This document shows, piece by piece, positions 19,079 through 36,262 of a DNA stretch of 64,000 nt (positions within the stretch are counted from its first letter, which is position 1; every line of letters starts with the position of its first letter). Source of the DNA: Deltaproteobacteria bacterium (GTDB taxonomy: Bacteria; Bdellovibrionota_F; JAHFAK01); the NCBI GenBank assembly GCA_023250585.1, contig JAHFAK010000001.1, positions 232 through 64,231 of the forward strand, read 5' to 3'. Both the position numbers and the translations under genes were made by a program. The notes under the pieces were generated by a model, which was not told where the DNA came from, made no database searches, and saw only the letters and a program-made list of their open reading frames with translations.

Positions 19079-19638
19079 TACAGTAACTCCCGTGCAGCAA
19101 CAAGGTTAGGCCACCCGAGATCTTTTTCTGAAAGAATTGCTTCTTTTTCTGAAACAGGCCATATTATTCCTAATGACGAATCATTCCATAAAATTCCCTT
19201 GTCATGTTCTTTTGAATAATAGTTTGTTACTTTATAAACAACTTCCGTATTTGATTCAAGGGTACAAAATCCGTGTGCAAACCCAATTGGAACAAGTAAC
19301 TGATGCCATTCTGTAGGACTTAATTCTACAGCGACATGTTTACCAAAAGAAGGAGATGCTTTTCTTATATCAAGCACAACATCGAGTATACGTCCTCGAG
19401 TAACTCGCACAAGTTTAGCTATTTCATAAGGAGGCGTCTGAAAATGCAATCCGCGAATCGTCCCTCGTGCTTCGCTCAAAGAATGATTATCTTGAACAAA
19501 TTTTTCAGTAATTCCCGCCTTATGAAATGCCTTTTCATTATATGTTTCAGAAAAAAACCCTCGTGAATCATTAATTTTACGGGTAATAATTAATTTGATT
19601 TCTGGAATTTCGAGTGGAATTACGTCTATCTTATTCAT
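19078..19638 (-). CDS. rfbC: dTDP-4-dehydrorhamnose 3,5-epimerase
   Basis: 186-aa cupin with RGLHFQ and FSETYN motifs of RmlC. Confidence 0.9.
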   Translation of the reverse strand: MNKIDVIPLEIPEIKLIITRKINDSRGFFSETYNEKAFHKAGITEKFVQDNHSLSEARGTIRGLHFQTPPYEIAKLVRVTRGRILDVVLDIRKASPSFGKHVAVELSPTEWHQLLVPIGFAHGFCTLESNTEVVYKVTNYYSKEHDKGILWNDSSLGIIWPVSEKEAILSEKDLGWPNLVAARELL

Positions 19639-21098
19639 TCAAAAACTCTCTTCGTTAAGTCTAGCCAATCCTTATATGCACGCTTTCTACTAAATCCATT
19701 GCGAGTTATCCCGCGTAGCATAGTCACAATAAAAACATAACATAAAGAACCACAAATAAATGCAGGAACATAATGCATAGAAGATTTAATACTCATCATA
19801 ACAACACTCATACAAACACCCGCGCCAAGACCTCTCATTACATTTTTAAGAGCACGATTGATCGAGAAAGGGATAATGTGTGAAGAAAGATAAAGCCCCA
19901 CTCCAAAAAATAAACAGTAACTTATGAGACACGAAACGGCTATCCCAATAACCCCAAAAAAAGGAATGAAGATAACAGTCAAAATTATGTTGAGGATCAT
20001 CGTGATACCTAAGAGTATTGTATGTATAACCTGACGATTACATGCATCAAGAAGACGCCCAATTGGCTGACTTAAAAATAATGGGACAAGAGCAATAGCA
20101 AGTAGCTTCAGTGTAGAGATCGATTCATTATATTCATTACTGAACACTAGGTGAATAATTTCCTCTGAAAAAATTGAAATGACGAGTGAAAAATATACAC
20201 ATATAATGAGTATCAATTCAAAAAATAAATCAAATGTTCTCTCTAACTTTTCTTGAGCAGTATTATAAAATGAACTAAACAGTGGAAAGATTACAGCTTC
20301 TAAAGCACCTGGAATAAAACGAAGAACGCCTACAATACAAGAAGCTGCTCCAAATAATCCCACGATTCTATCACTAGTAAAATATTTCAGTATAAACGTA
20401 TCTGCATAGATCAATTGCCCAAAAAATACCGCAATCATAAAAGGAATCGCTATCTTGGTTAAGGAAAAAATAAGATTCTTTTGAAAAATAAATCTAGGAA
20501 AGATAGCAAGCTCTCGATACAACGTATGGAATGAATACATGAAATGATACAGTTGGTTTAGTAATAGTGCTAAAACTAAAATATAGAGTGATGGATACAG
20601 TAACAATGAAAGCCCTCCAATAACAAGGGTAATCATTTGGCCAATAATATGGGCTCGAGCCTCGAATTTCATTTTTTGATACACTCGTAGACAGCCATAA
20701 AAAGTATCCGCAAAAGATTCAAACGTTATTGTTGCCATAAGCATTATTAACCAATGTTTTGTCGCTACAGGATAGCCCAATATCGTAACAAGTACTAGCC
20801 CCGAGACAAACATTATTACGGTAAAAAGTATTTTTACCGTAATAATGTTTGAAAGATATATCTCTAATTTTTCAGGTGATTTTGAACCTTCACGAATTAA
20901 GGTACTGGAAAGCCCAAAATCATGAAGCGCCGTGATTATTACTGCAAATGAAATGAGCCAAAAATAAAATCCCGTAGTCCAAATATCAGCATATCGAATA
21001 ACCAGGATAAAATAAATAAAGGTAATTACTTTTCTTCCAAAATAAGCTCCCATCATGTTTGTTACGTTGCGGATAAGTTGTCCTGCTGAAACAGTCAT
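19635..21098 (-). CDS. Wzx-type polysaccharide/O-antigen flippase (MOP superfamily, PST family)
   Basis: 487 aa, about 12-14 TM helices. N-terminal region typical of Polysacc_synt proteins. Confidence 0.6.
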   Translation of the reverse strand: MTVSAGQLIRNVTNMMGAYFGRKVITFIYFILVIRYADIWTTGFYFWLISFAVIITALHDFGLSSTLIREGSKSPEKLEIYLSNIITVKILFTVIMFVSGLVLVTILGYPVATKHWLIMLMATITFESFADTFYGCLRVYQKMKFEARAHIIGQMITLVIGGLSLLLYPSLYILVLALLLNQLYHFMYSFHTLYRELAIFPRFIFQKNLIFSLTKIAIPFMIAVFFGQLIYADTFILKYFTSDRIVGLFGAASCIVGVLRFIPGALEAVIFPLFSSFYNTAQEKLERTFDLFFELILIICVYFSLVISIFSEEIIHLVFSNEYNESISTLKLLAIALVPLFLSQPIGRLLDACNRQVIHTILLGITMILNIILTVIFIPFFGVIGIAVSCLISYCLFFGVGLYLSSHIIPFSINRALKNVMRGLGAGVCMSVVMMSIKSSMHYVPAFICGSLCYVFIVTMLRGITRNGFSRKRAYKDWLDLTKRVFE

Positions 21099-21110
21099 AA
21101 GTATATTTTT

Positions 21111-22169
21111 CTAAATTTTAAGAGCAGCTTGTTTACGTGCATAATATTTCTGTTGTAACGCTTTCAGAAGGCCATAAACCGATCCTAAACCATAACTTAC
21201 ATGAAGCGAAAAAAATATACCCGGCATTAAAAAAAAGTAAAGAAGATTCCTCGTTGTTACTGCTCTTTTAAAAGAAAAATAGAGAGTGCAAAAACAGTAG
21301 AGTCCAAAAACAGACAAAAAAATAAAACAACACACATTACTTACTACCGAAAGAAGAATAAATAATACAAAAAATAATACAAAAAATACAGGAACGAGAT
21401 GACGAATGGAAAAATCTGCATTATCTGAACCTAGAGGAAATGTAACAAGAACTCCATTGTTAAAGTTATGGATTAAAAATTCTCGTAAGGTCCCACGAGC
21501 AAAATAAAAACTCTCTATTTTTGGCACAAGAATAATCTTTCCTCCTCGCATTCTAATCCGACTATTTAGCTCAAAATCTTCATTACATCGGCCATGCCAT
21601 TTTGGTAACTGTTCATTATACATTCCTATTTCATCAAATAATTTTTTTCTAAAACATCCAAAAGGAACCGTATCAACTGCTCGAGGGGTTTCATTGTTCC
21701 TTGCTGTTCTAAAACCTCGAGGGCCAACTCCAAAAGGATGAGCCAGAGCTATAGCAATTGACTGCGCGATCAAGGTATTCTTTACAGGAAAAGTCTTTAC
21801 AATTCCGCCCACATTATCTGCATTATACTTTTCGAGATTCGCAATACATTGTGGAATATATTCTTTTGGATAGACGGCGTGCGCATCAATCCGGATAATA
21901 ATATCACCTTGCGCTGCCTGTATTCCTTTATTAAGAGCAGCAGGGGTGAACTTCTTTGGATTGTCTAACAATTTAATGAAAGGATATTTTTTTTGATACT
22001 GTTTTACAATCTGTATTGTTCTATCTTCACTATGTCCATCGACGACAATGATTTCAATGAGATTAATTAGGTAATCGGTATCAATGAGCGAATCAAGACA
22101 TTTTCCAATAAAATATTCTTCATTCAAACAAGGAATAATAACAGAAACCTTTTGATGAGGTACACTCAT
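21111..22169 (-). CDS. GT2-family glycosyltransferase with C-terminal membrane anchor
   Basis: VSVIIPCLNEEYFIGKCLDSL, DxD-like IVVDGHSEDRT, and three C-terminal TM helices. Confidence 0.8.
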   Translation of the reverse strand: MSVPHQKVSVIIPCLNEEYFIGKCLDSLIDTDYLINLIEIIVVDGHSEDRTIQIVKQYQKKYPFIKLLDNPKKFTPAALNKGIQAAQGDIIIRIDAHAVYPKEYIPQCIANLEKYNADNVGGIVKTFPVKNTLIAQSIAIALAHPFGVGPRGFRTARNNETPRAVDTVPFGCFRKKLFDEIGMYNEQLPKWHGRCNEDFELNSRIRMRGGKIILVPKIESFYFARGTLREFLIHNFNNGVLVTFPLGSDNADFSIRHLVPVFFVLFFVLFILLSVVSNVCCFIFLSVFGLYCFCTLYFSFKRAVTTRNLLYFFLMPGIFFSLHVSYGLGSVYGLLKALQQKYYARKQAALKI

Positions 22170-22891
22170 AAATTCAAATAATGAACATTCCTTTCAGTAA
22201 ACGTAAGATCTTCGAGAGTATTGATCTCAAATAATGGTTTATTGGTAGCATCAAGAGAATAATAATCTATTTCTTTAATTGCTTCGTGTATTATGCCAAA
22301 ATAATGCTGATTTTTATCTCCATATTTTATACATTGTTTAATTTTATTCAGCAAAAATTGAGTACTATTTTTTGAAAATTTTGCAAAACCAAATGCCTTT
22401 GCAACACACTCTGATGAATATATATGTGCCATTTTTGTGATTCTATCTTTTGAAAGCGTTACATATTCCATCTTTCCGTTTGGGGTAAAATCTTTTTTAA
22501 TTGCAATTATATTTTCATGAGAACTTACAATAAGCTCTTGTAAAAGATCTGGAGCAAATACAATATCACAATTCAAATGAATATAACTTTCACCCTGTAT
22601 CCAATCACGTGCTAACCATACAGAGAAAGAACTATTACTCGTTGCAAACTCTCTATTCCAGATGTAGTGAATGTGGATCTGAGGAAATTCTTCCTGCATA
22701 AAATGCTGAATTAGTTCTCCATGATATCCAAGAACAATCGCAATATCTTTAATGTCATTTGCTATTACAGATCGTATTTGATAATCTAATATTGGTTTTC
22801 CACCAACAGGTGTTAGAGCTTTTGGCCGATCGGCTGTTATGTATTTTAATCGTGATCCCAGACCAGCAGCAAGGATAAGTGCTTTTGACAT
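22166..22891 (-). CDS. sugar-phosphate / phospho-alcohol nucleotidyltransferase (NTP_transferase family; LicC/IspD-like size)
   Basis: MSKALILAAGLGSRLKYITADRPKALTPVGGKPILDYQI, i.e. the G-x-G-x-R-L ... K nucleotide-binding signature. 241 aa. Confidence 0.7.
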   Translation of the reverse strand: MSKALILAAGLGSRLKYITADRPKALTPVGGKPILDYQIRSVIANDIKDIAIVLGYHGELIQHFMQEEFPQIHIHYIWNREFATSNSSFSVWLARDWIQGESYIHLNCDIVFAPDLLQELIVSSHENIIAIKKDFTPNGKMEYVTLSKDRITKMAHIYSSECVAKAFGFAKFSKNSTQFLLNKIKQCIKYGDKNQHYFGIIHEAIKEIDYYSLDATNKPLFEINTLEDLTFTERNVHYLNL

Positions 22892-22900
22892 ATTCTATTA

Positions 22901-24505
22901 TTAATTATGGCTTGTATTTGTATACGCAACGGTAGGAGGTTTTGTAACAGGAGATATTTCGGGCAGTTGTCTACGTCTAAAGATCATTCGATAAGCAGTA
23001 CGAAGTACTGATTCTATCCTCGTTTCATCAGGTCTTCCCATAATAATATTGTAGAGAGCTTTAAAAAATCTCCACGGACGTAAACTATAGCTCACAATAT
23101 AAAATGAGATCAGTCCAAAGAATTTATATCGATGGAGCGCTCTACTTGAAATATGTAGAGACCATGAAACTGTCTTTTTTACAGTAGATGTCGAAGCTAA
23201 GGACCAAAGATATTCATCGTTATACTCCGGAATACGTCCGGAGGTTCGTAATTGATGAAAAAGTTCAGAACCTGGATATGGAATAAATCCCGTAATAGTG
23301 ATATCCTGAACACCAATTACTGCTAATTCCCAAATAAACCATATAGTTTCCCATATCTCACTATGTTTTTCTTCAGGAAATCCTATAATGATGTTTGCTT
23401 TTACTACAATTCCGCTCCGAAGACTGCTTCTCATTGAACGCTTCATTTTTTTGAGATCAACGGCCTTTTTGATTCTTTTTAGCACTCTAGGTGATCCACT
23501 CTCGGGAGCATAATAAATCGTGCGACATCCTGTGCGGTAAAGAAGGTCCGCTACTTCTTCGTCAATTGCTTCACTACGAGTTCCATTGGGAAATTGATAG
23601 GTAATATCGAGTTTTCTTTCTAATATTGACTTACAATACTCTATTATCCAACTCCGCTTTGTTACCATAGTCAGATCACAGAATCCAAAATTTTGGACTC
23701 CATATAGTTTGTTGTAATGCTCCATTTCATCAAGAATCTTTCTAGGGTCTCTCGTTAAATACGTCGTAGTCCACATTTGAGGACTTGAACAAAAGGTACA
23801 TTGAAAAGGACACCCTCGTGTAGCAAGAAAAGGAAGACTCCGGCGACCCTGGACCCCATGGCCAAAACCATTATCTAAGTACGCTGAAAGCGGGAAAAGA
23901 TCCCATGATGGAGGAGGAATATCATCCACCTTTTGGATACGGAGTGCCCGTAAGTTACGATCAACAGAACCTTGTGTAGGAATATGCCGAACTGGATTTT
24001 TTTGAGAAAGAATTGCTCCCGTTTCAGGCACAGGCTTACCATTATCTAGCAAGGAAATAAGACTTAAAAATGAAAATTCTCCTTCACCAATTATGCAATA
24101 ATCTATCTCAGGATTTTCTTCAAGTGTTATCTGAGCGGTAGCGGTCACATGTTCACCTCCAACGACAATTGGTCGATCTGGAAAATTTTTACGAATTTTT
24201 TTGATGAGATCTCGAGCAATTGGCCATTCATGAGAAAACATACATGAGATTCCAAAATAATCAGTTTTTGGATTGAGCCGCTCCAAAACTTCATCGAGTG
24301 TAAGACCGTGAGCAAAATATTTTCCTTCATGAACAGGATAAATTTGAAAGATTGATTCTCCTACTGAATCAATTGCATCTACAATGTGATCTTCTTTTTG
24401 GAGACAGGCAGCAAGATATGCAAGACCTAGAGGTGGAACACAAGACCGCGAAGGAACAGCCCTTACTACAACCATTGGTGGTCGTATCAGTGTAATATAA
24501 CTCAT
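22901..24505 (-). CDS. B12-binding domain radical SAM enzyme (class B radical SAM family)
   Basis: N-terminal cobalamin-binding region RPPMVVVRAVPSRSCVPPLGLAYLAACL and radical-SAM cluster ATRGCPFQCTFCSSPQMW (CxxxCxxC). Confidence 0.85.
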   Translation of the reverse strand: MSYITLIRPPMVVVRAVPSRSCVPPLGLAYLAACLQKEDHIVDAIDSVGESIFQIYPVHEGKYFAHGLTLDEVLERLNPKTDYFGISCMFSHEWPIARDLIKKIRKNFPDRPIVVGGEHVTATAQITLEENPEIDYCIIGEGEFSFLSLISLLDNGKPVPETGAILSQKNPVRHIPTQGSVDRNLRALRIQKVDDIPPPSWDLFPLSAYLDNGFGHGVQGRRSLPFLATRGCPFQCTFCSSPQMWTTTYLTRDPRKILDEMEHYNKLYGVQNFGFCDLTMVTKRSWIIEYCKSILERKLDITYQFPNGTRSEAIDEEVADLLYRTGCRTIYYAPESGSPRVLKRIKKAVDLKKMKRSMRSSLRSGIVVKANIIIGFPEEKHSEIWETIWFIWELAVIGVQDITITGFIPYPGSELFHQLRTSGRIPEYNDEYLWSLASTSTVKKTVSWSLHISSRALHRYKFFGLISFYIVSYSLRPWRFFKALYNIIMGRPDETRIESVLRTAYRMIFRRRQLPEISPVTKPPTVAYTNTSHN

Positions 24506-24540
24506 ATACTATTATTGTATATACTCTTAAAAAATTCTTA

Positions 24541-25464
24541 TCAAGAAACTTGTTTTTGTAGAATCAAATGAAGTCCATCTTGTTTTCGCTTTGCTCTCTC
24601 TAGCGCAATATCAATAACATCTTTTGCCGAAAACGAATTCTTATGAACTGGAATATTAATTGGCTTATAGTAATATCCTAATGCTCCTAACCACTCCAAA
24701 AGATTTTTTGCACTAGTACCAAATCTTTCTAAACCTGGTGGCCAAAATTCCATAATAATGGTCGGACTGCTTTTTTGCAAAAGTCTTTTTGCTCCTTCTA
24801 ATACCAAACCTTCTGCTCCTTGAATATTCATCTTGAGTACATCCAATTTCATAGTACCAACATGCTGATCAAAATAATCGTCAAGTCTTACTGAGTTGAC
24901 TGAATATTCTCTATACTCGTTTTCATCTCTTTCATTATCTTTACCGTGACTTTTGAGGGATGAAGATAAATTTTCTCGAGAAAGAGAACCTGCAGAAGTA
25001 AAATTGTTGTTTGCATATAAAGTTTGATAACCATTCGAGTTAGAAACTGCCATTTCTAATAGTGAAACGTTTTTATGAGTATTCGCCTCAACATTTTTCT
25101 TGAGGATTGCAAAACACTGAGGATCTGGTTCAAATGCATATACATGTCCTGTTTTACCCACTTGTTCAGCAGCTATTAGAGTGAGATGACCTATATTGGC
25201 ACCGATATCCGCTACAAACATGCCTGGTGAAATAGTCTTACTAAAATAATCGGTTATTGGCTTCACATGATCACCAAAAACAAGCAGACGGCGAGAAACA
25301 CCTAAATCAGTTGGAATAAGAAAAATTCTTTGCCCATGAAATTCCACTGATGGATTTTTTCCCAAGGTACGAATAAATATTAGATATGCCGAACTATAGA
25401 ATGAAAGAAACCCCGGGATTTTACCTATTCCCATTTTTTTAAGAAAACGAAAAAAATTTCTCAT
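24541..25464 (-). CDS. FkbM-family SAM-dependent methyltransferase
   Basis: MFVADIGANIGHLTLIAAEQ...VYAFEP is the Methyltransf_21/FkbM motif. Confidence 0.7.
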   Translation of the reverse strand: MRNFFRFLKKMGIGKIPGFLSFYSSAYLIFIRTLGKNPSVEFHGQRIFLIPTDLGVSRRLLVFGDHVKPITDYFSKTISPGMFVADIGANIGHLTLIAAEQVGKTGHVYAFEPDPQCFAILKKNVEANTHKNVSLLEMAVSNSNGYQTLYANNNFTSAGSLSRENLSSSLKSHGKDNERDENEYREYSVNSVRLDDYFDQHVGTMKLDVLKMNIQGAEGLVLEGAKRLLQKSSPTIIMEFWPPGLERFGTSAKNLLEWLGALGYYYKPINIPVHKNSFSAKDVIDIALERAKRKQDGLHLILQKQVS

Positions 25465-26849
25465 ACTCCTCCTCTTTGTGTATGTACTTCAATCCATTCT
25501 CCATTTTCATGACACTTGAAAAAGGTAAGTGGCTTGATTGATTGACATAAACTTTTGCCTGTTGTTGAGTCAAATCGAAGGCCATGCCAAGGACATAGTA
25601 TTGTTGAATCTTTAATAATTCCAGTAGCAAGATCTGCTCCCTCGTGAGGACAGAAACGATTAAATGCCATAACTCGATCATCGTATCGAGCAACGCAAAT
25701 TGAATCACTTAAAGGTCTAGTCTCATTATGCACAAGATCGGTTGAACGGAATACTATAATTGAAGGATCATTCCCCGAACGCGTTTTGAGATACTGATTT
25801 TTGCTCAGAGGTATTTCTGTTGCAGGAGGAATTATGCCTCGTTTAAAACCTTTGCTTCGGGCTAAGAAAAAACGAGGGTGAGGAAATCTCTGAACTTTGG
25901 CTTTCATCCTATGATTATGCGAAAAAAATTTCACTCGCCGAAAATCGTAATAACAGAAGTTCTTATAGTAATCAGGTTTTTCAAACGTCATTCTCATGCT
26001 GATAATTAAACGTGTTTTATCTGTTTGATTAATAGTTGAAGCATGAATTTGGTCTGCCATGAATAATAAAACATCTCCAGGCTCTAAATTAAACGTAATT
26101 CCTCTACCTAAATGATAATGAGGATCTATCTCTTGTTTTTCATTACAGGCAAGCTGTTTGCCCCACATGGTTGGATAAAATGTCAAACCATTAAATTCAG
26201 AGACATGTCCAATGGCACACCAAAGATTTACAGTATTAAATGCATGAAAAAACCAGGAATCCTGATGAGGCCCGTGAAGGGTTACTTTACCACGACCAAT
26301 TGTTTTTGCTAAATGCCGGAGACTTACTAACTCACGAGACATAACATCATATGGATACATCATTCGTATATTTGGGCCTGTCTCTACATAAAACGGAGTT
26401 CTCCTTGCCAAAGTAAAAAAATTAAACCGTGCCATAATATTGAGGGCAAGCTCGGGAATTACTTTTTCGGTTTCCTCATAAAATTTGCTAAGGCTTTTGG
26501 CAGGTAAAACTTCATGAATTTTTTCTATACCGTGTTTTTTAACATAACTTACAGCGCCTTCATTACAAACGATCATGAGTGCTCGCAAGATTTCAGCAAC
26601 AACGGTATCGTGCATTGCAATATTTTGAAGACACCGGCGGATCACAACGATTTCACCATGTTTAATCCGCTCAATTATTTCTTGAGAAGAAATTAATTCC
26701 ATTGTATCGAAGTTATGTGACTCTAGTAAAACCACGCCTTGAAAATCACGAACATCCCAAGAAAAAACATTAATCTTTTTCAGAAAATAACGTCTCAAAT
26801 ATGCAGGCATTTGTTGTAAACTCATATTATCGTAAAAAAACCTTTTCAA
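25461..26849 (-). CDS. fusion protein: PhyH-like Fe(II)/2-oxoglutarate-type oxygenase domain + C-terminal Rieske [2Fe-2S] domain
   Basis: HGPHQDSWFF (HxD facial-triad motif) and distal IHASTINQTDKTRLIISMRM (H...N-S...R as in PhyH). C-terminal CPHEGADLATGIIKDSTILCPWH is an exact CxH-x16-CxxH Rieske site. Confidence 0.6.
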   Translation of the reverse strand: MKRFFYDNMSLQQMPAYLRRYFLKKINVFSWDVRDFQGVVLLESHNFDTMELISSQEIIERIKHGEIVVIRRCLQNIAMHDTVVAEILRALMIVCNEGAVSYVKKHGIEKIHEVLPAKSLSKFYEETEKVIPELALNIMARFNFFTLARRTPFYVETGPNIRMMYPYDVMSRELVSLRHLAKTIGRGKVTLHGPHQDSWFFHAFNTVNLWCAIGHVSEFNGLTFYPTMWGKQLACNEKQEIDPHYHLGRGITFNLEPGDVLLFMADQIHASTINQTDKTRLIISMRMTFEKPDYYKNFCYYDFRRVKFFSHNHRMKAKVQRFPHPRFFLARSKGFKRGIIPPATEIPLSKNQYLKTRSGNDPSIIVFRSTDLVHNETRPLSDSICVARYDDRVMAFNRFCPHEGADLATGIIKDSTILCPWHGLRFDSTTGKSLCQSIKPLTFFKCHENGEWIEVHTQRGGV

Positions 26850-28395
26850 AAGGATCTTTAAAAATTTTATTAAACAACTTACTGATAAGCGCCTTAAGAG
26901 ATGCCTCCATACGAGACTCTTCTTTTTTTCCCATCACAATATTAAACAGGGGTTTGAAAAATCTTTGTGGACGTCTCACAAAGCTCACTGAATAAAAAAG
27001 CAGAAGACCAAAAATACGATACAAAGCTAGCTCTCTATGAGAAATATCATCCGACCATGATACTGATTTTGAAATATTTGAGGTTGTTGCTAAAGACCAG
27101 AAATACTCATCATGGTATTCGGGTAAACGTCCTGTAGCTCTTAAGTGATCATAGATTTCAGTTCCTGGATATGGAATATATCCTGAGATAGTTGTTTCAT
27201 GTACTCCCAACCATGCTATTTCTACTAAAAACTTCATTGTCTGCCATACTTCTCTATGCGTTTCTCCAGGAAAACCTAATATAGTATTACTCTTGATTAC
27301 CATGCCTTTTTTAAGACATCCTTTCATTGATTTTTTCATAGAATGAAGGTTCACCTTCTTTTTTATTCTCGCAAGTACTGTAGGCGACCCACTTTCTGGG
27401 GCATAATTTAAATTACGGCACCCTGATGTATAAAGAAGTTCTGCAACTTCTTCATCAATCGCTTCTGACCGTGTACCACTAGGCAGTTGCCAGGTAAATT
27501 GGTGTTTTCTTTTAAGAATAAGATTGCAAAATTCTACAATCCAATTTTTCTTAACAATTGCCGTGAGGTCATAAAAACTAAAATTTTCTGCTTTATACCG
27601 ATCAAGATACAATTCCATTTCTGATAAAACTTTTTCAGGTTTTCGTGCAACCCATCGGGTACTCCACATTTGAGGACTAGAACAAAAAGTACATTGATAC
27701 GGGCATCCACGTGTGGCAAGCATCGGCATATTTCGACCACGATTAACGCCGTAACCAAAGTTGTGGTCAAGATATTCTTCTAATCGAATAAGATCCCATG
27801 CAGGTAGGGGTATATCATCAATATCATGTACTCGAAGATTAAAGAGATATTTATCAACGGGACCGGAGCGATGTGGCTTTATAGGATTTGATTTTGTAAT
27901 AACAGCAGGAAGCCCTTCTCCGTTTTCACCTAAAGATAAAGCGCCTACAAGTCGAGTAAAATGCAACTCCCCCTCTCCTAATACACATGCATCGACTTCT
28001 TGAAAATTTTTTAAAATCCATGAAGCAGTAGCCGTTACATGTTCTCCCCCACAAATGATAGGCTTATGAGGGAATCGAAGCTTTAACTTTTTAATGACCT
28101 GATACGCAAGAGGCCACTCTACGGAGAACATAGCTGAAACACCAATGATATCGAAATTATCATCAACCCTTTCAACAATTTCATCAGGGGTAAGACCATG
28201 AATAATATGACGCCCATTATTAATAGGTGTCATTTGAAATATTGATTCTCCAACTGCATCGATAATTTTAACCTCATGTCCTGCTTCTCGTAAACTTGAT
28301 GCAATATACCCAAGCCCAAGTGGTGGACACGTGGATCGAGACTGAACAAGTCTCACAACAATCATTGGAGGACGAATTAAGATAACTCGACTCAT
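26827..28395 (-). CDS. B12-binding domain radical SAM enzyme, paralogue of 22901..24505
   Basis: RPPMIVVRLVQSRSTCPPLGLGYIASSL and ATRGCPYQCTFCSSPQMW. Collinear with the other copy over its whole length. Confidence 0.85.
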   Translation of the reverse strand: MSRVILIRPPMIVVRLVQSRSTCPPLGLGYIASSLREAGHEVKIIDAVGESIFQMTPINNGRHIIHGLTPDEIVERVDDNFDIIGVSAMFSVEWPLAYQVIKKLKLRFPHKPIICGGEHVTATASWILKNFQEVDACVLGEGELHFTRLVGALSLGENGEGLPAVITKSNPIKPHRSGPVDKYLFNLRVHDIDDIPLPAWDLIRLEEYLDHNFGYGVNRGRNMPMLATRGCPYQCTFCSSPQMWSTRWVARKPEKVLSEMELYLDRYKAENFSFYDLTAIVKKNWIVEFCNLILKRKHQFTWQLPSGTRSEAIDEEVAELLYTSGCRNLNYAPESGSPTVLARIKKKVNLHSMKKSMKGCLKKGMVIKSNTILGFPGETHREVWQTMKFLVEIAWLGVHETTISGYIPYPGTEIYDHLRATGRLPEYHDEYFWSLATTSNISKSVSWSDDISHRELALYRIFGLLLFYSVSFVRRPQRFFKPLFNIVMGKKEESRMEASLKALISKLFNKIFKDPFEKVFLR

Positions 28396-29147
28396 TAGTC
28401 AGTTCTTCCTATATGATACCCGCCATCGACGGGTAATGTTACGCCCGTAATCCACGAAGAATCATCGGAAAGTAAAAAAAGTACTGCGCGAGCAATATCA
28501 TGTATTGAACCAAATCTTCCTAAAGCATGACTCTTTTTCAGTGCTTCATGTTCGTCATCTGATAATGCTGATAGATAATTTTCTACCAATGGAGTTTCTA
28601 CATACCCTGGGCAGACACAATTTGCTCTAATATTATGTTTAGCATAGTCAATAGCAATTGATTGAGTCAGCCCAACAAGACCCCATTTACTTGACATATA
28701 CGATGCACGTTCTTTCAGTGCACAAATTCCTGCAATAGATGAAATATTGACAATACTTCCCGCGCCTACCGAAATCATATGCTCAAGCGCTGCCTTAGAA
28801 CAATTAAACACTCCGGTGAGATTTGTCGCAATGGTTTTTTCCCAATCATCAAAACTGGTATTTCCAAGAACATTACGGGATGGGTTAATACCGGCGTTAT
28901 TCACAAGTCCAGTGACAGCATGCCCCTCTTTTTTAAGATGTTCAAAAAGTTTTGTAACATCTTCGGGAATGCTTATATCACATACATTGGTAATAAGTGA
29001 CGAAGATCTTTTGAGAGAAGCTAATTTTTCTTCTGTACGACCAATAGCATAAACAGTTGCTCCTTCATGTACAAGATCATAGGTAATTTGTTTTCCAATA
29101 CCTGAACCTGCACCGGTAACGACGATCGTTTTTTCTTTAAATCGCAT
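28395..29147 (-). CDS. short-chain dehydrogenase/reductase (classical SDR)
   Basis: TIVVTGAGSGIGK, NNAGIN, and the YMSSKWG catalytic YxxxK. Confidence 0.85.
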   Translation of the reverse strand: MRFKEKTIVVTGAGSGIGKQITYDLVHEGATVYAIGRTEEKLASLKRSSSLITNVCDISIPEDVTKLFEHLKKEGHAVTGLVNNAGINPSRNVLGNTSFDDWEKTIATNLTGVFNCSKAALEHMISVGAGSIVNISSIAGICALKERASYMSSKWGLVGLTQSIAIDYAKHNIRANCVCPGYVETPLVENYLSALSDDEHEALKKSHALGRFGSIHDIARAVLFLLSDDSSWITGVTLPVDGGYHIGRTD

Positions 29148-29149
29148 AA

Positions 29150-30274
29150 CTATACATCTTGTTTCAATTTATTCCAATGATCAATCCAAATATTATCATG
29201 AGTATCAAAAAAACGCGTTAGGAAATTTTTTACTCTATCTGGTTCTACCATATAAAAAGGTGAACCATTATTGTTATAGGGTAGTGCAATATCTTTAATA
29301 AGAACAAGACCTATTTTTTCGCTGGATGATTTTTTATCTCCTCGCATAAGCGCTGTTATAGCTTCTGCATCGATTCCTTGCTGAACTCGTCTATTAAGAG
29401 CTAAACGATTCATAAGTATAACAACATAATCTTTGAGTTCTGATGAAATTATACTCTGCTCTACACTAAAAGTAAGAGCCATCATGATACCAGCAGCGAT
29501 CGCATCTCCATGGCTTACCTCGTAATGAGAATATTTTTCAAGCGCATGGCCAAACGTATGCCCTAGATTGCTTGCTAATGGATCTTGTCGTCGTATCTTA
29601 ATTCTCACATTAATTGTTTCTCGTACAATTTCTATCATTACATCATCCGATGGTACTTCTTTATAGGCCATGAGAAGATCAAGAAGACGATGCGATCCGA
29701 GTAATCCATATTTAAATACCTCAGAAAATCCTTGTCTCATTTGATACGGTGAATTCGTATGAAGTAAGGTTACATTGTTGTATACAACACGAGGAAGATA
29801 GAGTGTGCCTAATAAATTTTTTGAGTACTCTGTATTAATACACGTTTTACCTGCAGTCGCTGCATCAGCTTGACCAATTAACGTCGTAGGAATCATCATA
29901 AGAGGAATGCCTCTCATATATACTGAAGCAAGAAATGAAATCGCATCAAGAATTGTTCCACCCCCAAGAGCAACAATTAAATCATCTCGCGAACATTTTA
30001 AATGAGCAAGATGATCAACTAAGAAAGCAAATGATCTAAGATCTTTTGATGCTTCTTCTGCTTTTAGAAATATAATCCCTTCTAAAGGAAAAAAATTGTG
30101 CAATTTTTTTTGTAAAGCGGGTAACCACGTATTTCTCAAAGCTTCGTCACAAAAGACAATCACTTTTCCGGGTTGTTTTGTAAGAATATTAAGCGTAAGT
30201 TCATCAAAGCTTTTTGTTTTATCAAGAATAAAACGCACTGTTTGTGTCTCAGTAACTGATTCTTCAAAAATCAT
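29150..30274 (-). CDS. 3-dehydroquinate-synthase-like sugar-phosphate cyclase superfamily enzyme
   Basis: GGGTILDAISFLASVYMRGIPLMMIPTTLIGQADAATAGKTCIN and HTFGHALE match the DHQS nucleotide and metal sites. Confidence 0.8.
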   Translation of the reverse strand: MIFEESVTETQTVRFILDKTKSFDELTLNILTKQPGKVIVFCDEALRNTWLPALQKKLHNFFPLEGIIFLKAEEASKDLRSFAFLVDHLAHLKCSRDDLIVALGGGTILDAISFLASVYMRGIPLMMIPTTLIGQADAATAGKTCINTEYSKNLLGTLYLPRVVYNNVTLLHTNSPYQMRQGFSEVFKYGLLGSHRLLDLLMAYKEVPSDDVMIEIVRETINVRIKIRRQDPLASNLGHTFGHALEKYSHYEVSHGDAIAAGIMMALTFSVEQSIISSELKDYVVILMNRLALNRRVQQGIDAEAITALMRGDKKSSSEKIGLVLIKDIALPYNNNGSPFYMVEPDRVKNFLTRFFDTHDNIWIDHWNKLKQDV

Positions 30275-30288
30275 ATTTTCTCATGATG

Positions 30289-30999
30289 CTATAAGAGAAA
30301 GAGTTTTTCTCTTTCTCTTTGTTGTTCTATTTCTTTGATTTTATTGACTCGTGTAACAAAAGCATCAAAATTGCCTTGTATAAGATTATGTTCGCCGAGT
30401 ATCGAAAAAAGACGAGGCATTGTACTCATGTATATAGGGTCCATTTTTAAAAAATCAGCAGCAAAGTGGTAGCCTAATTGTTGAGGTTCCATGCATGAAA
30501 AAAAATCTTTTAAAATTTTTTTTTCATGCTCACACGCAAGTGAAAGACGTACATCATAGTAAGAATCTACCCACGGTGGAGTAAAATCAACATAAGCCAG
30601 TTCGACTCCATTCCATACAAAGTTTTTAATGTGAGGATCAAAATTCAATCGAGCGTTTTGTGCTTTACGGAGAATACTAAAAATCCTGTCGAGAACTTTT
30701 TTTTCCGGGAGCAGATCATTAGGTGCTATTTTCCTCATATATTGTAAAATATTTGGACCTTTAAACTCACATATATAGATGAGACGTTCTTGATTTGCTT
30801 CTGATTTATATATTTCTGGTACGGGAATTCCAGCACTTGTTAGTTTTGTAACGTAGTGAATAATAGCTTTCTCAAGATCACACCAGTGAATTCCCAAGTG
30901 AACATTTAGGCGAGTTTCCTTACGGATACATTCACGACCTTCAAAATGTACTGTAGAAAATTTAGAATCTTGAACGCTATAACGATTTAATTCTTCCAT
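30289..30999 (-). CDS. hypothetical protein with weak protein-kinase-like / phosphotransferase fold features
   Basis: RLNFDPHIKNFVW resembles the HxD-x4-N catalytic loop, and AYVDFTPP a DFG-like metal loop, of APH/choline-kinase/Kdo-kinase enzymes. Weak. Confidence 0.3.
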   Translation of the reverse strand: MEELNRYSVQDSKFSTVHFEGRECIRKETRLNVHLGIHWCDLEKAIIHYVTKLTSAGIPVPEIYKSEANQERLIYICEFKGPNILQYMRKIAPNDLLPEKKVLDRIFSILRKAQNARLNFDPHIKNFVWNGVELAYVDFTPPWVDSYYDVRLSLACEHEKKILKDFFSCMEPQQLGYHFAADFLKMDPIYMSTMPRLFSILGEHNLIQGNFDAFVTRVNKIKEIEQQREREKLFLL

Positions 31000-32036
31000 T
31001 GCCCAATATATCTTACTAAATCAACAACACGTGATGAATATCCCCATTCGTTGTCATACCACAAAACCATTTTCAGATAATTGTGTTCATTCATATAAAT
31101 CCATCGGTGATCTATGACAGCTGAATAGCTTGATCCAGTAAAGTCTGTAGAAACAAGCGCTTCTTTATTATTAAAGAATATATTCCATTTCTGATTTTTT
31201 TCTTCCTCTTCAAATACTGATTGAATGGTATCAACATTGACTTTTTCCTCGAGCTCAACGGAAAGATCAGCAGAAGAAACAATCATTGTTGGAATACGAT
31301 ATGACATAGATAAAAATTTTCCCGTAAGGTTTTTAAGTACTTTACATGAAGCAGAAATTGCAGATGTTGTTTTTGGTATTAATGAATTCGTACTTCCTCT
31401 TCCTAACGCATAATGATCATGAATTTTCCCCGGCGTAGCATAAGAAATCGAAGGACCATCAAGGAGATTCTGATAATTTAACCATGGATGTAGGGTAGTC
31501 AAAAATCCATGTTTAATTCCAAATTTTTTATCGAGCACATGTGCTGTCGGTGAAAAAGCATTGGCATCGCAGATACTACTTGAAATAAGAAAATGACGTT
31601 CTGGCTTGAAATCATCATGATTAACTCCTAAGATAATTGCAATATCAACTTCATCTTCTTGAGGAGCATTCGTAACAATGCAATGACGAACTCCTTGTGT
31701 TTTCAGTTTCCGTGCATTGATAAGATTCTGCTTAACCCCAGAAGAATCAATGACAATATCAACTCCTTCTTTATTCCATGGAACATCAGAAATATTTTCA
31801 TGACGATACACGCGCAATTTTTTTTCGTTTCCTATAGTAATTGTATCTCCTGTTACTGCAATACTCTTCTCAAGACGTCCATATGTTGAATCATACTTAA
31901 TAAGATAAGCAATATTATTAATATCTGGGTTAATATCGTTGATACAAACAATATCAATATCAGGATGCTCAAGCGTAATACGTAATACCGCTCGCCCTAT
32001 TCTTCCTAGACCGTTAATACCTACTTTAAAACTCAT
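30987..32036 (-). CDS. glyceraldehyde-3-phosphate-dehydrogenase-family dehydrogenase (divergent)
   Basis: Start refined to the internal ATG (MSFKVGINGLGRIGRAV). C-terminal WYDNEWGYS GAPDH signature. Active-site region SSSICDANAFSP retains Cys but is atypical. Confidence 0.8.
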   Translation of the reverse strand: MSFKVGINGLGRIGRAVLRITLEHPDIDIVCINDINPDINNIAYLIKYDSTYGRLEKSIAVTGDTITIGNEKKLRVYRHENISDVPWNKEGVDIVIDSSGVKQNLINARKLKTQGVRHCIVTNAPQEDEVDIAIILGVNHDDFKPERHFLISSSICDANAFSPTAHVLDKKFGIKHGFLTTLHPWLNYQNLLDGPSISYATPGKIHDHYALGRGSTNSLIPKTTSAISASCKVLKNLTGKFLSMSYRIPTMIVSSADLSVELEEKVNVDTIQSVFEEEEKNQKWNIFFNNKEALVSTDFTGSSYSAVIDHRWIYMNEHNYLKMVLWYDNEWGYSSRVVDLVRYIGQWKN

Positions 32037-32062
32037 ATTAATTCCTTTCGTAAAGAGCATTA

Positions 32063-32764
32063 TTATTGTATATTCTTTGATCGAGGATAATTCAAGAAAC
32101 TCATGCTGAGCCACAGTATTGATGAAATTCCATAAAAAATAGTTACAACAAATGAAATAACTTTTAGATCCCACCCACAAACAATAGTGATTCCTAAAAA
32201 AAGAGGAAGTAAAGCTAACATAAACCGTACTGAAAGAAATGAATATTTGTTATAGTATAAATGAACAAATGTTCCTATAAAACCTTGAGAAGGCATTTCT
32301 TTTACTGCCAGTGGAACAAAAATGATGAGCACTCCGCTTGAAAAAGCTGCGAGTAGAATTAAGTAATAGCTCTCTGTATAAATCCCAAAAAGGACAATGA
32401 GCATCAACCGAGCAAGATTACAGCCCAAATCATCAAGAAGGTGCCCAAGCATACTACAACTGTTTGAAGCTTTAGCTATAGGACCATCAGCAAAATCAAC
32501 AAAGATAAGAAAATAAATGCAAAAGATTCCAATAATGGGAAGCAGAACTACTCCATTCATAGCTGTCACAAGAAAACAATATCCAATGAACACAAGAAAA
32601 ATTGCAGAAACATCAAGCACGTTGGCGGTTATCCCAATTTTGTAAGCAAAAAAAGCAAACTGCAGTGCAATCCATTTCACAAGATTAGTCGTAAAATCAA
32701 ATTGTTTTCTGTCAAAAACTGATCTTTCAGGAAACTGTTTAGCTGTAAATTGAGTAAATGTCAT
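32063..32764 (-). CDS. CDP-alcohol phosphatidyltransferase-family membrane enzyme
   Basis: DFADGPIAKASNSCSMLGHLLDDLGCNLAR contains the D-G-x2-A-R/K...G-x3-D-x3-D signature. 6 TM helices. Confidence 0.7.
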   Translation of the reverse strand: MTFTQFTAKQFPERSVFDRKQFDFTTNLVKWIALQFAFFAYKIGITANVLDVSAIFLVFIGYCFLVTAMNGVVLLPIIGIFCIYFLIFVDFADGPIAKASNSCSMLGHLLDDLGCNLARLMLIVLFGIYTESYYLILLAAFSSGVLIIFVPLAVKEMPSQGFIGTFVHLYYNKYSFLSVRFMLALLPLFLGITIVCGWDLKVISFVVTIFYGISSILWLSMSFLNYPRSKNIQ

Positions 32765-33993
32765 AATGTAGTTCCTTCCATGAGTTCAAGAAAACGATCT
32801 GCTGAAATTGACCATGAATAATGCTTTTCGGTAATCGAACGGATATCTTCTGCTCGCATAACATACCTTTCTCGATTTCGACAAAAATCCTCTATTTTAT
32901 TACCTATGCTTTGAGGATCACATCCATTAATAATCCACTCTTTGTTATAGCGCTTAAGAATTTCTGGAGTTGCCCCATTGTCAGTGCCAAGCACAACAAG
33001 TCCTGAGAGTAATGCTTCAACAGTTGCAAGACCAAATCCTTCAGCACCTTGCGTAGGAAGAATAAAAGCATCCGCAACTTGATAGTAATGAGCTAACTCT
33101 ATTTCAGAAATTCCACTGACAAGGCGGACAGAATCTTTTAGAGAAAGTGAGTCTATGTACTGACGAATTTTCGTTTCCATCACACCTCGTCCAACAATTA
33201 TTATAAAAAATGAAACTCCTTTTTTTTTGAGCCCTGCAAGGGCTTCGACAAGTTTATCAACTCCTGTCCGAGGTTTCAAACCACGTGCTGTTATAAAAAG
33301 AATCTGCTCTAACGGAAGATTAAGTTCCTTACGAAGTTTTATCTTTAATGCATTATTAGTAATCGGAGTATACAGTTTTTCATCTGCTCCACCTGGAACA
33401 ATTTTAATCTTATCTTTAACTCCATTTCGGCCAATTGAAATACAACGATCACGTGCATACTCACTGTGAACCAAAACAAGATCTGCTTTGCTAATAACTG
33501 AAATAGCAATGCGATCGAAAAAATGTCCAATAATCTGTACTACTGGATTTTTTGGATAATTATATAAAAGTTCCGAATAAACATCACTATGAAAATCATA
33601 TATAATTTTTGCACGAGGCCACCATCGTTTTGGATTAAAACCTATCATCCACCATGGATTATGAACCCACACAACATCTATATTTTCATACTGCGATGCC
33701 ATCTTCTTCTGAGCACTATAGGATTGTACTGCAGTAACAAGAGGCCATAACATATGAGTGAGATCGCCTCTTTTAGGAATAGAAACTCGGAAATAGTGCA
33801 TATTTTCGACTATTTCATATGAAGAATATTTATGACTGTATTTCCGGGTAAGTATAATAACTTCATGGTTTCGATATGCTAATTCTCGTGAAATATTGTA
33901 TACAAGCTTAGGTAAGCCGCTATGGCGATCAGGATAAATTCCGGGTGTAAGAACAAGTATCTTCATTCTAGTTATTTTTTTTATGCCCAACAA
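32761..33993 (-). CDS. GT4-family glycosyltransferase (GT-B, retaining)
   Basis: C-terminal PTQGAEGFGLATVEALLSGLVVLGTDNGATPEIL is the EX7E region of Glycos_transf_1. Confidence 0.85.
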   Translation of the reverse strand: MLGIKKITRMKILVLTPGIYPDRHSGLPKLVYNISRELAYRNHEVIILTRKYSHKYSSYEIVENMHYFRVSIPKRGDLTHMLWPLVTAVQSYSAQKKMASQYENIDVVWVHNPWWMIGFNPKRWWPRAKIIYDFHSDVYSELLYNYPKNPVVQIIGHFFDRIAISVISKADLVLVHSEYARDRCISIGRNGVKDKIKIVPGGADEKLYTPITNNALKIKLRKELNLPLEQILFITARGLKPRTGVDKLVEALAGLKKKGVSFFIIIVGRGVMETKIRQYIDSLSLKDSVRLVSGISEIELAHYYQVADAFILPTQGAEGFGLATVEALLSGLVVLGTDNGATPEILKRYNKEWIINGCDPQSIGNKIEDFCRNRERYVMRAEDIRSITEKHYSWSISADRFLELMEGTTL

Positions 33994-35668: not shown

Positions 35669-36262
35669 TTATACAAGAAAAGAAATTTCTTGAGCTATTC
35701 TATGAGTATCACGTTGACCAATGATACGATTATAAACTAAAGATACTTTCTTGGCAGTTTTTGTCTCAAGATCATAACTAAGACAACCAACAATTGGTTT
35801 ATAATAAACATGAAGCGTACAGGCACGACGATTGTTAATTGCAGGATTCTCTAATTGATGAATCCCGATCTCATCATCAATATAAGAAACGTCTCCCCTA
35901 TTATACGTTTCTTGAAGTAATGGTGTAAGGTCGCCTTTAAAGTCAATGGATTTTACATAAACATAATTTTTACTCTCTATAGTCCCTCGTAGAACAGTCA
36001 TACAACAATGCTGCCCTTCATGATCATGAATTGGTGTTTTTTGCCCTGGTTCCCAACATAGAATAAGTATTTCAAAAAATTCATTTTTAAAAATAAGATT
36101 CCGGGTATAATGAGATTGATGAAAATAATATAAATTTTCCAAGGAACATTCAAAAAGTTTATATTGATGCATGAGTTCTAAAATTCTTTCATTTTCTATA
36201 GCTAAGGATGGAGAGAATAATCGAGAAATTTTCTGAATAAATTCTCTCAGTTGAGTTAGCAT
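35669..36262 (-). CDS. cysteine-dioxygenase-type-I-like cupin (thiol dioxygenase family)
   Basis: ILILCWEPGQKTPIHDHEGQHCCMTVLRG closely parallels mammalian CDO [29 protein letters not shown] (the 3-His iron site HxH...H). Confidence 0.7.
   Translation of the reverse strand: MLTQLREFIQKISRLFSPSLAIENERILELMHQYKLFECSLENLYYFHQSHYTRNLIFKNEFFEILILCWEPGQKTPIHDHEGQHCCMTVLRGTIESKNYVYVKSIDFKGDLTPLLQETYNRGDVSYIDDEIGIHQLENPAINNRRACTLHVYYKPIVGCLSYDLETKTAKKVSLVYNRIIGQRDTHRIAQEISFLV

Follow-up and report, generated by a model that had tools for sequence, protein, structure and literature searches.

Introduction

The enzymes of the PhyH family (PF05721), such as human phytanoyl-CoA hydroxylase (PDB 2a1x), MysH, SnoN/SnoK, PtlH and SptF, and the Rieske oxygenases, such as the naphthalene and carbazole dioxygenases, SxtT and NdmA, are the closest described relatives of the two halves of a hybrid protein that is the main subject of this report. 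The protein is encoded in a 64-kb stretch of DNA from a Deltaproteobacteria bacterium (contig JAHFAK010000001.1 of assembly GCA_023250585.1, positions 232 to 64,231 of the forward strand), which is called the window. We refer to the hybrid as the PhyH-Rieske fusion, and to two cobalamin-binding radical S-adenosylmethionine (SAM) proteins encoded close to it as rSAM_A and rSAM_B. The fusion is like the PhyH enzymes in its predicted fold, in an HxD...H triad, and in a Ser/Arg pair for the C5 carboxylate of 2-oxoglutarate (2OG). It is unlike the solved members that it matches, which are without an iron-sulfur domain, in having a C-terminal Rieske domain, and it sits in polysaccharide loci. With the Rieske oxygenases and their ferredoxins it has in common a CxH-x16-CxxH site, and its C-terminal domain superposes on the ferredoxins, so that a shared logic, in which a [2Fe-2S] centre feeds a mononuclear iron, is likely. 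The differences from the Rieske oxygenases are nonetheless substantial. Their alpha subunits begin with the Rieske domain and continue with the catalytic domain, whereas in the fusion the order is reversed, and the catalytic part has a PhyH-type fold rather than a Bet v 1/START-like one. There is also no gene for a reductase or ferredoxin partner near the fusion gene.

What would a Rieske domain do in such a protein? Fe(II)/2OG oxygenases draw both reducing equivalents from 2OG, and a conserved, fused electron-transfer domain is therefore unexpected. There are two ways to read its presence: as an internal means of rescuing oxidised iron, or as a sign that the PhyH fold is powered differently here. 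Either would be of interest to enzymologists and to those who engineer C-H hydroxylases.

The radical SAM proteins resemble the class B enzymes (Fom3, GenK, TokK, CysS, TsrM and PhpK, the non-methylating BchE and HpnJ, and the related AprD4) in combining an N-terminal B12-binding domain with a CxxxCxxC core. Fom3 acts on a cytidylylated substrate, and a further likeness to Fom3 is that the operon of the two radical SAM genes of the window includes a gene for a nucleotidyltransferase. Unlike the class B enzymes with names, the two proteins fall far below every curated equivalog cut-off and belong to a large unnamed family. A last group for comparison is made up of the cytidine diphosphate (CDP)-alcohol pathways, namely the IPCT/DIPPS pathway to di-myo-inositol phosphate, the LicA/LicC pathway of phosphocholine decoration and the pneumococcal Gtp1-3 pathway for CDP-2-glycerol. 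As in these pathways, genes for a kinase-like protein, a small nucleoside triphosphate (NTP) transferase and a CDP-alcohol-transferase-like protein occur in one operon in the window. There, however, the module also includes a GAPDH-like enzyme and a B12-dependent radical SAM protein, and the signature of the transferase is divergent. In the literature that we searched there was no account of a PhyH-Rieske fusion, nor of a module that joins a B12-dependent radical SAM protein with CDP-alcohol genes.

The PhyH-Rieske fusion protein

The fusion gene occupies 25461..26849 on the minus strand and, as listed, encodes 462 amino acids (aa). The listed start is a TTG codon that overlaps the end of the rSAM_A gene; an ATG at 26825 (M9) or at 26810 (M14) is more likely to be the true start, giving a protein of 454 or 449 aa, and the copy of the protein in the database (P0001) has 449 aa. 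Throughout this report, Pfam scores are judged against gathering cut-offs and NCBIfam scores against curated equivalog cut-offs. The fusion scores 40.2 bits for PhyH (cut-off 22; residues 176-280) and 46.4 bits for Rieske (cut-off 20.3; residues 368-432). A first-pass annotation, made by reading the sequence without database searches, had described a tailoring cassette of four minus-strand open reading frames (ORFs) here. All four are present and all of the domain calls hold, with PhyH, Rieske, B12-binding and Radical_SAM each above the gathering cut-off in the profile scans that the annotation had proposed. The metal-binding residues that it had picked out, HxD...H and CPH-x16-CPWH, are also there, as H195-Q-D197 with H269 and as C400-P-H402-x16-C419-P-W-H422. 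A word-indexed search gave 16 homologs, every one of which keeps both domains, and across them H195, D197, H269, S271, R280, R286, C400, H402, C419 and H422 are invariant or nearly so.

It seems clear that the N-terminal domain is of the PhyH type. When a profile of this domain was compared with solved structures, the best match was human phytanoyl-CoA hydroxylase (2a1x; E 4.9e-7), followed by MysH. The alignment to PhyH sets HgpHqD on HPLHQD and vHgSeiNqTdeTR on IHGSGQNKTQGFR (IHGS), and the PhyH positions so aligned are those that we take to be the iron ligands H175, D177 and H264 and the 2OG-binding residues S266 and R275. The alignment of the triad had been set beforehand as the trial of the PhyH assignment, and the assignment survives it, the triad of the fusion falling on H175, D177 and H264 of 2a1x. 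S271 and R280 of the fusion likewise align with Ser266 and Arg275 of PhyH, which bind the 2OG C5 carboxylate. The aspartate of HxD is retained, by which a halogenase reading of the PhyH domain is ruled out.

An AlphaFold2 model built from the 16-sequence alignment (pLDDT 86.8, pTM 0.87) divides the protein into a PhyH-like domain with an N-terminal helical extension at about residues 40-330 and a Rieske domain at about 360-460. The PhyH-like part had been thought to take up the N-terminal 370 or so residues; its identity stands, and its extent is to be shortened, since the model has a low-confidence linker at about residues 331-350. In Foldseek comparisons with the PDB, the N-terminal domain matches SptF, SnoN/SnoK, PtlH, PhyH, AndA and MysH (E about 1e-6, identity 12-19%), and the C-terminal domain matches the CarAc, TodB and NDO ferredoxins (target TM-score 0.70-0.79, rmsd 2.1-2.8 Å). 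No PDB chain among the top 50 matches covers both domains, each match spanning just one of them. This result, with the rarity of the family described below, bears out the earlier opinion that a C-terminal Rieske domain on a PhyH-like fold is unusual. To judge from its sequence, the Rieske site is without the extra cysteines of the high-potential, bc1-type Rieske proteins, which fits a domain of the low-potential, electron-donating type.

Occurrence and genomic setting of the fusion family

How common are such proteins? When 1.84 billion representative proteins were searched exhaustively with a profile, 253 clusters were found at E<=1e-30. Among the 150 best representatives, 135 have the motif H-x-D...H-x-[ST]-x8-R, and 108 of these 135 also have CxH...CxxH, always with the oxygenase domain first and the Rieske domain C-terminal; the 27 without a Rieske motif are mostly short sequences. 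An artefactual joining of two genes is ruled out, since more than 100 clusters conserve the protein as a single ORF and the pTM of the model is 0.87. Among 185,579 species genomes, about 17 hold a full-length or nearly full-length member, and the hosts include Nostoc, Desmonostoc, Microcoleus, Myxococcota, Acidobacteria, Sphingomonadales, Cycloclasticus and Methylocaldum. The PhyH-Rieske family is thus real, rare and widely scattered, and its members are hybrids of known kinds of enzyme that make up an uncharacterised family.

The genomic setting was surveyed by Pfam scans of 112 ORFs, each no more than about 3.3 kb away from one of 22 non-redundant members of the family. The commonest neighbour family is polysaccharide pyruvyl transferase (12 of the 112 ORFs), after which come methyltransferases, family 2 glycosyltransferases (GT2), Wzx-type flippases and GT4 glycosyltransferases. 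Some long members of the family are natural PS_pyruv_trans-PhyH-Rieske fusions, one of them with a GT41 domain in addition, and others carry a GT1-type domain. Two closer relatives adjoin a Wzt ABC exporter or a Wzx flippase. Taken together, the neighbours, the fusions to pyruvyl transferase and the adjacency to Wzt and Wzx mark the fusion as a glycan-locus family. Near the more distant fusion loci of the survey, no B12-dependent radical SAM gene and no 3-dehydroquinate synthase (DHQS)-like gene was seen.

Two old paralogs and a conserved gene pair

The genes for rSAM_B (534 aa; 22901..24505, minus strand) and rSAM_A (522 aa; 26827..28395, minus strand) bound the four-gene cassette. The two proteins score 60.8 and 71.5 bits for B12-binding (cut-off 32.1) and 64.6 and 69.7 bits for Radical_SAM (cut-off 29.5), and they are 53% identical over 514 residues. 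The cluster motif CPxQCTFC had been reported as common to both, and so it is, as CPYQCTFC in rSAM_A and CPFQCTFC in rSAM_B. Both proteins fall in a family that has no name and is very large: the search gave more than 5,600 matches, and identities of about 50% are common among them. Neither reaches membership of a named equivalog: the best score of 156-158 bits, for the Sden_1168 P-methyltransferase model, compares with a cut-off of 575, and the next models, BchE, ApyD and HpnJ, are also below their cut-offs. The nearest solved relative is AprD4 (6fd2; E 1.2e-15), ahead of TsrM, TokK and CysS.

The first-pass annotation took the two proteins to be the products of a duplication, and suggested a phylogeny. 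In a neighbour-joining tree with 100 bootstraps, rSAM_A belongs to an A-like clade and rSAM_B to a B clade that also holds P0034 and a fragment from the metagenome contig L088. Each clade has 100% bootstrap support, and the two are sister groups, also at 100%. Because the clades are separate and each has orthologs in other organisms, the paralogy is old and did not arise by duplication within the locus. Descent from a common ancestor is therefore upheld, while a local origin is not, and a recent tandem duplication of the gene is ruled out by the tree.

The B clade has a partner. Every B-clade gene with a readable neighbour, on three contigs including the window, adjoins a PhyH-Rieske gene. In L087 (GC content 54%) and L088 (46%), an ortholog of the fusion gene lies directly downstream of the rSAM_B ortholog, with a gap of no more than about 10 nucleotides (nt). 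Identities to the window proteins are 64-66% for rSAM_B and 36-40% for the fusion. The fusion orthologs of these contigs group with the fusion of the window with a support of 58%, which becomes 100% when P0143 and P0152 are added. The rSAM_B and fusion genes are thus a separately conserved, adjacent pair. With adjacency in three cases out of three and a fusion family so rare, functional coupling of the two proteins is indicated. Could the Rieske domain then serve as the reductant for the radical SAM clusters? We consider this unlikely, as most fusion members are without a radical SAM neighbour, and Rieske potentials are too high for reducing such clusters.

The core module and the sub-operon

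rSAM_A keeps different company. Orthologs are found on other metagenome contigs, 76% identical in L081 and 62% in L084-L086, and most of these lie in a module whose core comprises genes for a CDP-alcohol-transferase-like protein, a GAPDH-like protein, a kinase-like protein, a B12-dependent radical SAM protein, an NTP transferase, a GT2 and Wzx. The order in L081 and L082 is GT4, CDP-OH_P_transf, GAPDH-like, HAD, a 236-240-aa protein, radical SAM, NTP transferase, DUF218, GT2 and Wzx. Between L081 and the window the identities are 76% for the radical SAM protein, 73% for the GAPDH-like protein, 56% for the GT2, 54% for the NTP transferase, 52% for the CDP-OH protein, 45% for the kinase-like protein and 41% for Wzx, which holds the same position in L081. 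L081 has no orthologs of the DHQS-like gene, the short-chain dehydrogenase/reductase (SDR) gene, or the fusion, FkbM and rSAM_B genes; the window has gained these five and is without the HAD and DUF218 genes of L081. In L084, the CDP-OH, GAPDH-like (63% identical), NTP transferase, GT2 (50%) and Wzx genes lie within a few kilobases of the radical SAM gene, and in L085 and L086 the CDP-OH, NTP transferase and DUF218 genes are near it. NTP-transferase orthologs flank the radical SAM gene in L081, L084 and L085, while L086 has a weaker match (32%) about 6 kb away. A fifth A-like contig, L083, is without the module, and its radical SAM gene lies outside any glycan locus, beside ribosomal-protein and rpoB genes.

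L081 (JGI 3300045950) has a GC content of 57% against about 35% for the window, so that the two are 22 points apart yet syntenic over many genes. Identities of 70-76% are found for the GT2 at 14503, orf13563, the epimerase at 12593, the GAPDH-like protein and rSAM_A, with a different order of blocks, which suggests that parts of the locus have been transferred between distant hosts. L085 and L086 also carry, near the NTP transferase gene, genes for His_Phos_1 (phosphoglycerate-mutase-like), pyruvate kinase barrel and PEP-utilizer/PPDK proteins. Given these lower-glycolysis-like genes, the core module may activate a three-carbon acid, for instance glycerate, phosphoenolpyruvate or lactate.

In the window, the four genes of the cassette are the variable middle of a sub-operon of 13 co-directional genes at about 19.6-32.8 kb, packed with overlaps of 1-4 nt or gaps of no more than 35 nt at the gene junctions; the last 4 nt of the fusion gene, for instance, are also the first 4 of the FkbM gene. 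Between 16 and 36 kb, neither promoter-like sites (62 against 76 expected from shuffled sequence) nor terminator-like sites (12 against 10.3) exceed expectation, and no internal operon boundaries can therefore be placed. The cassette consists of one core gene, that for rSAM_A, and three accessory genes, to which the SDR gene at 28395-29147 and the DHQS-like gene at 29150-30274 are to be added as further accessory genes. The first-pass annotation had treated the four genes as a cassette; they are indeed adjacent, but they are not a self-contained unit, since rSAM_A belongs to the core module, rSAM_B and the fusion form a pair of their own, and the functional unit is the whole sub-operon.

The remaining genes of the sub-operon, all on the minus strand, are as follows. 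Between the rSAM_B and fusion genes is that for the 307-aa FkbM-family SAM-dependent methyltransferase (24541..25464), which scores 88.1 bits for Methyltransf_21/FkbM (PF05050; cut-off 22.7) and 118.9 for TIGR01444 (cut-off 37.7). At higher coordinates than rSAM_A, the SDR (28395..29147; 250 aa) scores 199.6 bits for adh_short_C2 and is followed on the map by a DHQS-like sugar-phosphate cyclase or phosphate-eliminating lyase (29150..30274; 374 aa; DHQ_synthase and DHQS_C). The latter scores 243.8 bits against the aroB model TIGR01357, under the cut-off of 305, and is accordingly not assigned as AroB. Next comes a putative small-molecule kinase of 236 aa (30289..30999), a weak call that is based on a DUF6206 match of 21.4 bits, under the cut-off of 30.4, and on DPHIKN and VDF motifs that are conserved in the L081 ortholog (45% identical); a PDB profile search gave no match for this protein, and a single-sequence AlphaFold2 model was unusable (pLDDT 35.9). 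The GAPDH-like dehydrogenase (30987..32180; Gp_dh_N and Gp_dh_C) probably starts at M49, at position 32036, and then has about 349 aa. It is below the cut-offs of all GAPDH and E4PDH equivalogs, and by eye it keeps Cys (SICDAN) and His (LTTLHPW) at the GAPDH catalytic positions. The last gene on this side (32063..32764) encodes a divergent CDP-alcohol phosphatidyltransferase-like membrane protein of 233 aa, which reaches 22.1 bits for PF01066 (cut-off 22). Its motif is D-x2-D-G-x2-A-K-x8-G-x3-D, as against the signature D-x2-D-G-x2-A-R-x8-G-x3-D-x3-D, and it belongs to a subfamily in which K replaces the R of the signature and the spacing is shifted at the end of the motif. Beyond rSAM_B lie the genes for a 241-aa nucleotidyltransferase (22166..22891; NTP_transf_3 and NTP_transferase), which is predicted to be an activating enzyme and weakly matches inositol-1-phosphate cytidylyltransferase (E 7.4e-11), for a 352-aa GT2 glycosyltransferase (21111..22169; Glycos_transf_2, 114.8 bits), and for a 487-aa Wzx-type flippase (19635..21098; Polysacc_synt and MurJ).

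Environmental polysaccharide loci thus contain two recurrent, uncharacterised gene sets, one being the module of B12-dependent radical SAM, NTP-transferase, CDP-alcohol-transferase-like and GAPDH-like genes and the other the pair of rSAM_B and PhyH-Rieske genes. Both are testable entry points to undescribed glycan decorations.

A possible pathway and its alternatives

What might the sub-operon make? We propose that its enzymes build a small side group of the glycan, methylate it on carbon, hydroxylate it, methylate it on oxygen and activate it with a nucleotide, a proposal to which we give an even chance of being right. The kind of substrate, methylation by the radical SAM enzymes and the part played by the Rieske domain are inferences. 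In this scenario the GAPDH-like enzyme, the DHQS-like phosphate-eliminating cyclase and the SDR would convert a phosphorylated precursor to a small polyol- or cyclitol-like unit. The radical SAM enzymes, A and B, would place methyl groups on unactivated carbons, the PhyH-Rieske enzyme would carry out an O2-dependent hydroxylation of the unit, on the new methyl group or on a neighbouring carbon, and FkbM would O-methylate one of its hydroxyls. The kinase-like protein would phosphorylate the unit and the NTP transferase would then activate it with a nucleotide; in the synthesis of di-myo-inositol phosphate, a cyclitol phosphate is activated by an NTP transferase that works with a CDP-alcohol transferase. 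Finally, the CDP-alcohol-transferase-like protein or the GT2 would pass the unit to the growing glycan, and Wzx would flip the repeat unit.

Several observations weigh against this scheme. The closest solved relative of the DHQS-like protein is DHQS itself (3clh; E 2.5e-39), ahead of DOIS (2d2x; 2.6e-20) and EEVS (4p53; 8.1e-17), so that it is nearer to true DHQS than to the known cyclitol synthases. The kinase assignment is weak, given the sub-threshold DUF6206 score and the lack of a match in the PDB profile search. The CDP-alcohol-transferase-like protein of the window ends its motif in Asn (LLDDLGCN), whereas five orthologs from other contigs keep the last Asp of the signature (LGCD/LGID/LGGD). 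The best solved relative of the radical SAM proteins, AprD4, is a dehydratase and not a methylase, and all of their equivalog scores are far below cut-off. Hydroxylation by a 2OG oxygenase needs no external electrons, so that standard chemistry offers no account of what the Rieske domain does. Lastly, the order of the pathway steps is guesswork, and the substrate is putative.

For the fusion, the annotation had raised the idea of a self-sufficient oxygenase with a built-in electron relay. It may be such an enzyme. The equivalents of PhyH Ser266 and Arg275 are kept, and with the 2OG-binding residues conserved, a simple swap of 2OG for the Rieske domain is not the default reading. We favour instead a 2OG-using oxygenase in which the Rieske domain keeps the iron ferrous; most likely it hands single electrons to the mononuclear iron and so maintains or restores the Fe(II) state. 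One might think, alternatively, of a 2OG-independent monooxygenase, in which a reductase-fed Rieske domain supplies two electrons and the Ser/Arg pair binds a carboxylate or phosphate of the substrate. We regard this as possible and rather doubtful. Conservation of the Rieske domain in 108 of the 150 best representatives, always in the same order, would agree with it, as would the resemblance of a site without bc1-type cysteines to the ferredoxins of oxygenase systems, and many members adjoin or are fused to pyruvyl transferases, the products of which bear a carboxylate. The exact H-x-S-x8-R arrangement of 2OG binding in PhyH is retained, however, and no reductase gene was seen nearby, in the window or in the related loci. 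A question of the same kind concerns the radical SAM proteins, one or both of which might catalyse a radical rearrangement, dehydration, ring contraction or cyclisation, in the manner of AprD4, HpnJ, OxsB or BchE, rather than a methylation. The precedence of AprD4 over the methylases TsrM, TokK and CysS speaks for a non-methylating enzyme, and the BchE and HpnJ models score nearly as high as that of the P-methyltransferase. Yet within NCBIfam both proteins match a methyltransferase family best (Sden_1168, about 157 bits) and several further methylase models besides, albeit all far below cut-off, and methylases are the majority among characterised members whose B12-binding domain scores. We think it somewhat improbable that either protein is something other than a methylase.

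The nature of the substrate can also be read differently. The cassette might tailor an ordinary nucleoside diphosphate (NDP)-hexose or a lipid-linked sugar of the repeat unit, and the DHQS-like, GAPDH-like and CDP-OH genes would then serve a separate side pathway. The distant fusion homologs, which lie among glycosyltransferases, pyruvyl transferases and NDP-sugar epimerases or dehydratases without a core module, are in keeping with a hexose substrate, and rmlCBDA is just downstream of the sub-operon. Such a division of labour is less easily squared with the rSAM_A orthologs, which are embedded in a module of CDP-OH, GAPDH-like and NTP-transferase genes in L081/L082 and L084 and stand beside parts of it in L085 and L086, or with the translational packing of the window's cassette with the core module, and we hold it to be an unlikely, if serious, competitor of the proposal made above. 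Still further from the proposal is an embedded secondary-metabolite cluster with a free, antibiotic-like product. DHQS-like cyclases, B12-dependent radical SAM enzymes, PhyH-type oxygenases and FkbM are familiar from aminoglycoside and polyketide pathways, and the first-pass annotation judged the chemistry to be more typical of antibiotic than of O-antigen loci. That judgement does not hold up: the fusion genes, and most A-clade radical SAM genes that were examined, turn up repeatedly in the polysaccharide loci of many uncultured bacteria. In the window, glycosyltransferases and a Wzx flippase flank the block on both sides and on one strand, and the related loci are likewise glycan loci; scans of the window and of the related loci found no typical resistance, regulator or exporter genes. 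An antibiotic-like product is accordingly very improbable.

A bolder version of our proposal may be stated, with more diffidence than the alternatives for the oxygenase, the radical SAM proteins and the sugar substrate. The PhyH-Rieske proteins would represent a new class of hybrid oxygenase, with an iron centre of the 2OG-oxygenase type that is driven or obligatorily primed by its fused Rieske domain. Here the oxygenase would work in a fixed pair with rSAM_B, and a CDP-activated cyclitol or polyol phosphate that decorates the surface glycan would receive from the two a branch derived from a C-methyl group, which is oxygenated and then O-methylated. Our literature searches turned up no side group or pathway of this description. 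We put this forward as a speculation that is probably wrong in at least some of its parts.

The surrounding glycan locus

A single, very large surface-polysaccharide locus, nearly all of it on the minus strand, fills most of the window and contains the sub-operon; the GC content of the window is even (0.30-0.40). Its content includes rmlCBDA, two Wzx-like flippases, a Wzy-like protein, many glycosyltransferases, a CDP-glycerol glycerophosphotransferase-like protein and an aminotransferase.

Other genes hint at further decorations. Two sulfate-activation systems and a sulfotransferase are encoded at 60531-62723, 5114-6859 and 59591-60511 (all minus strand), which suggests that the glycan is sulfated. 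The first of these genes, by domain scan, encodes a 730-aa fusion of a pyruvate-kinase barrel, a PUA domain and an ATP-sulfurylase, itself an unusual combination; the second sulfate-activation protein joins ATP-sulfurylase and APS-kinase in 581 aa. A gene for a type I cysteine dioxygenase (83.5 bits; 35669-36262, minus strand) adjoins one for an AsnB-like glutamine amidotransferase (36374-38353, minus strand), and cysteine sulfinate, hypotaurine or taurine may be the source of an amide-linked decoration on the glycan. A TylC3-type NDP-hexose C-methyltransferase (Methyltransf_14/13; 52999-54279, minus strand) and a split, two-subunit transketolase-like pair (8743-10562, minus strand) are also encoded, and non-radical routes may thus contribute branched sugars to the glycan too.

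Just upstream of the GT4 and CDP-OH genes is a gene for a cysteine-rich, 565-aa DUF4215-repeat protein (33968-35665, minus strand), which is kept at the same position in L081 (3665-5566) with 46% identity. Four ORFs of 307-517 aa, at 11320-12615 (plus strand) and at 13563-14486, 48523-49455 and 55813-57366 (minus strand), have no Pfam match even at E 0.05; among them, orf13563 is conserved in L081 with 72% identity.

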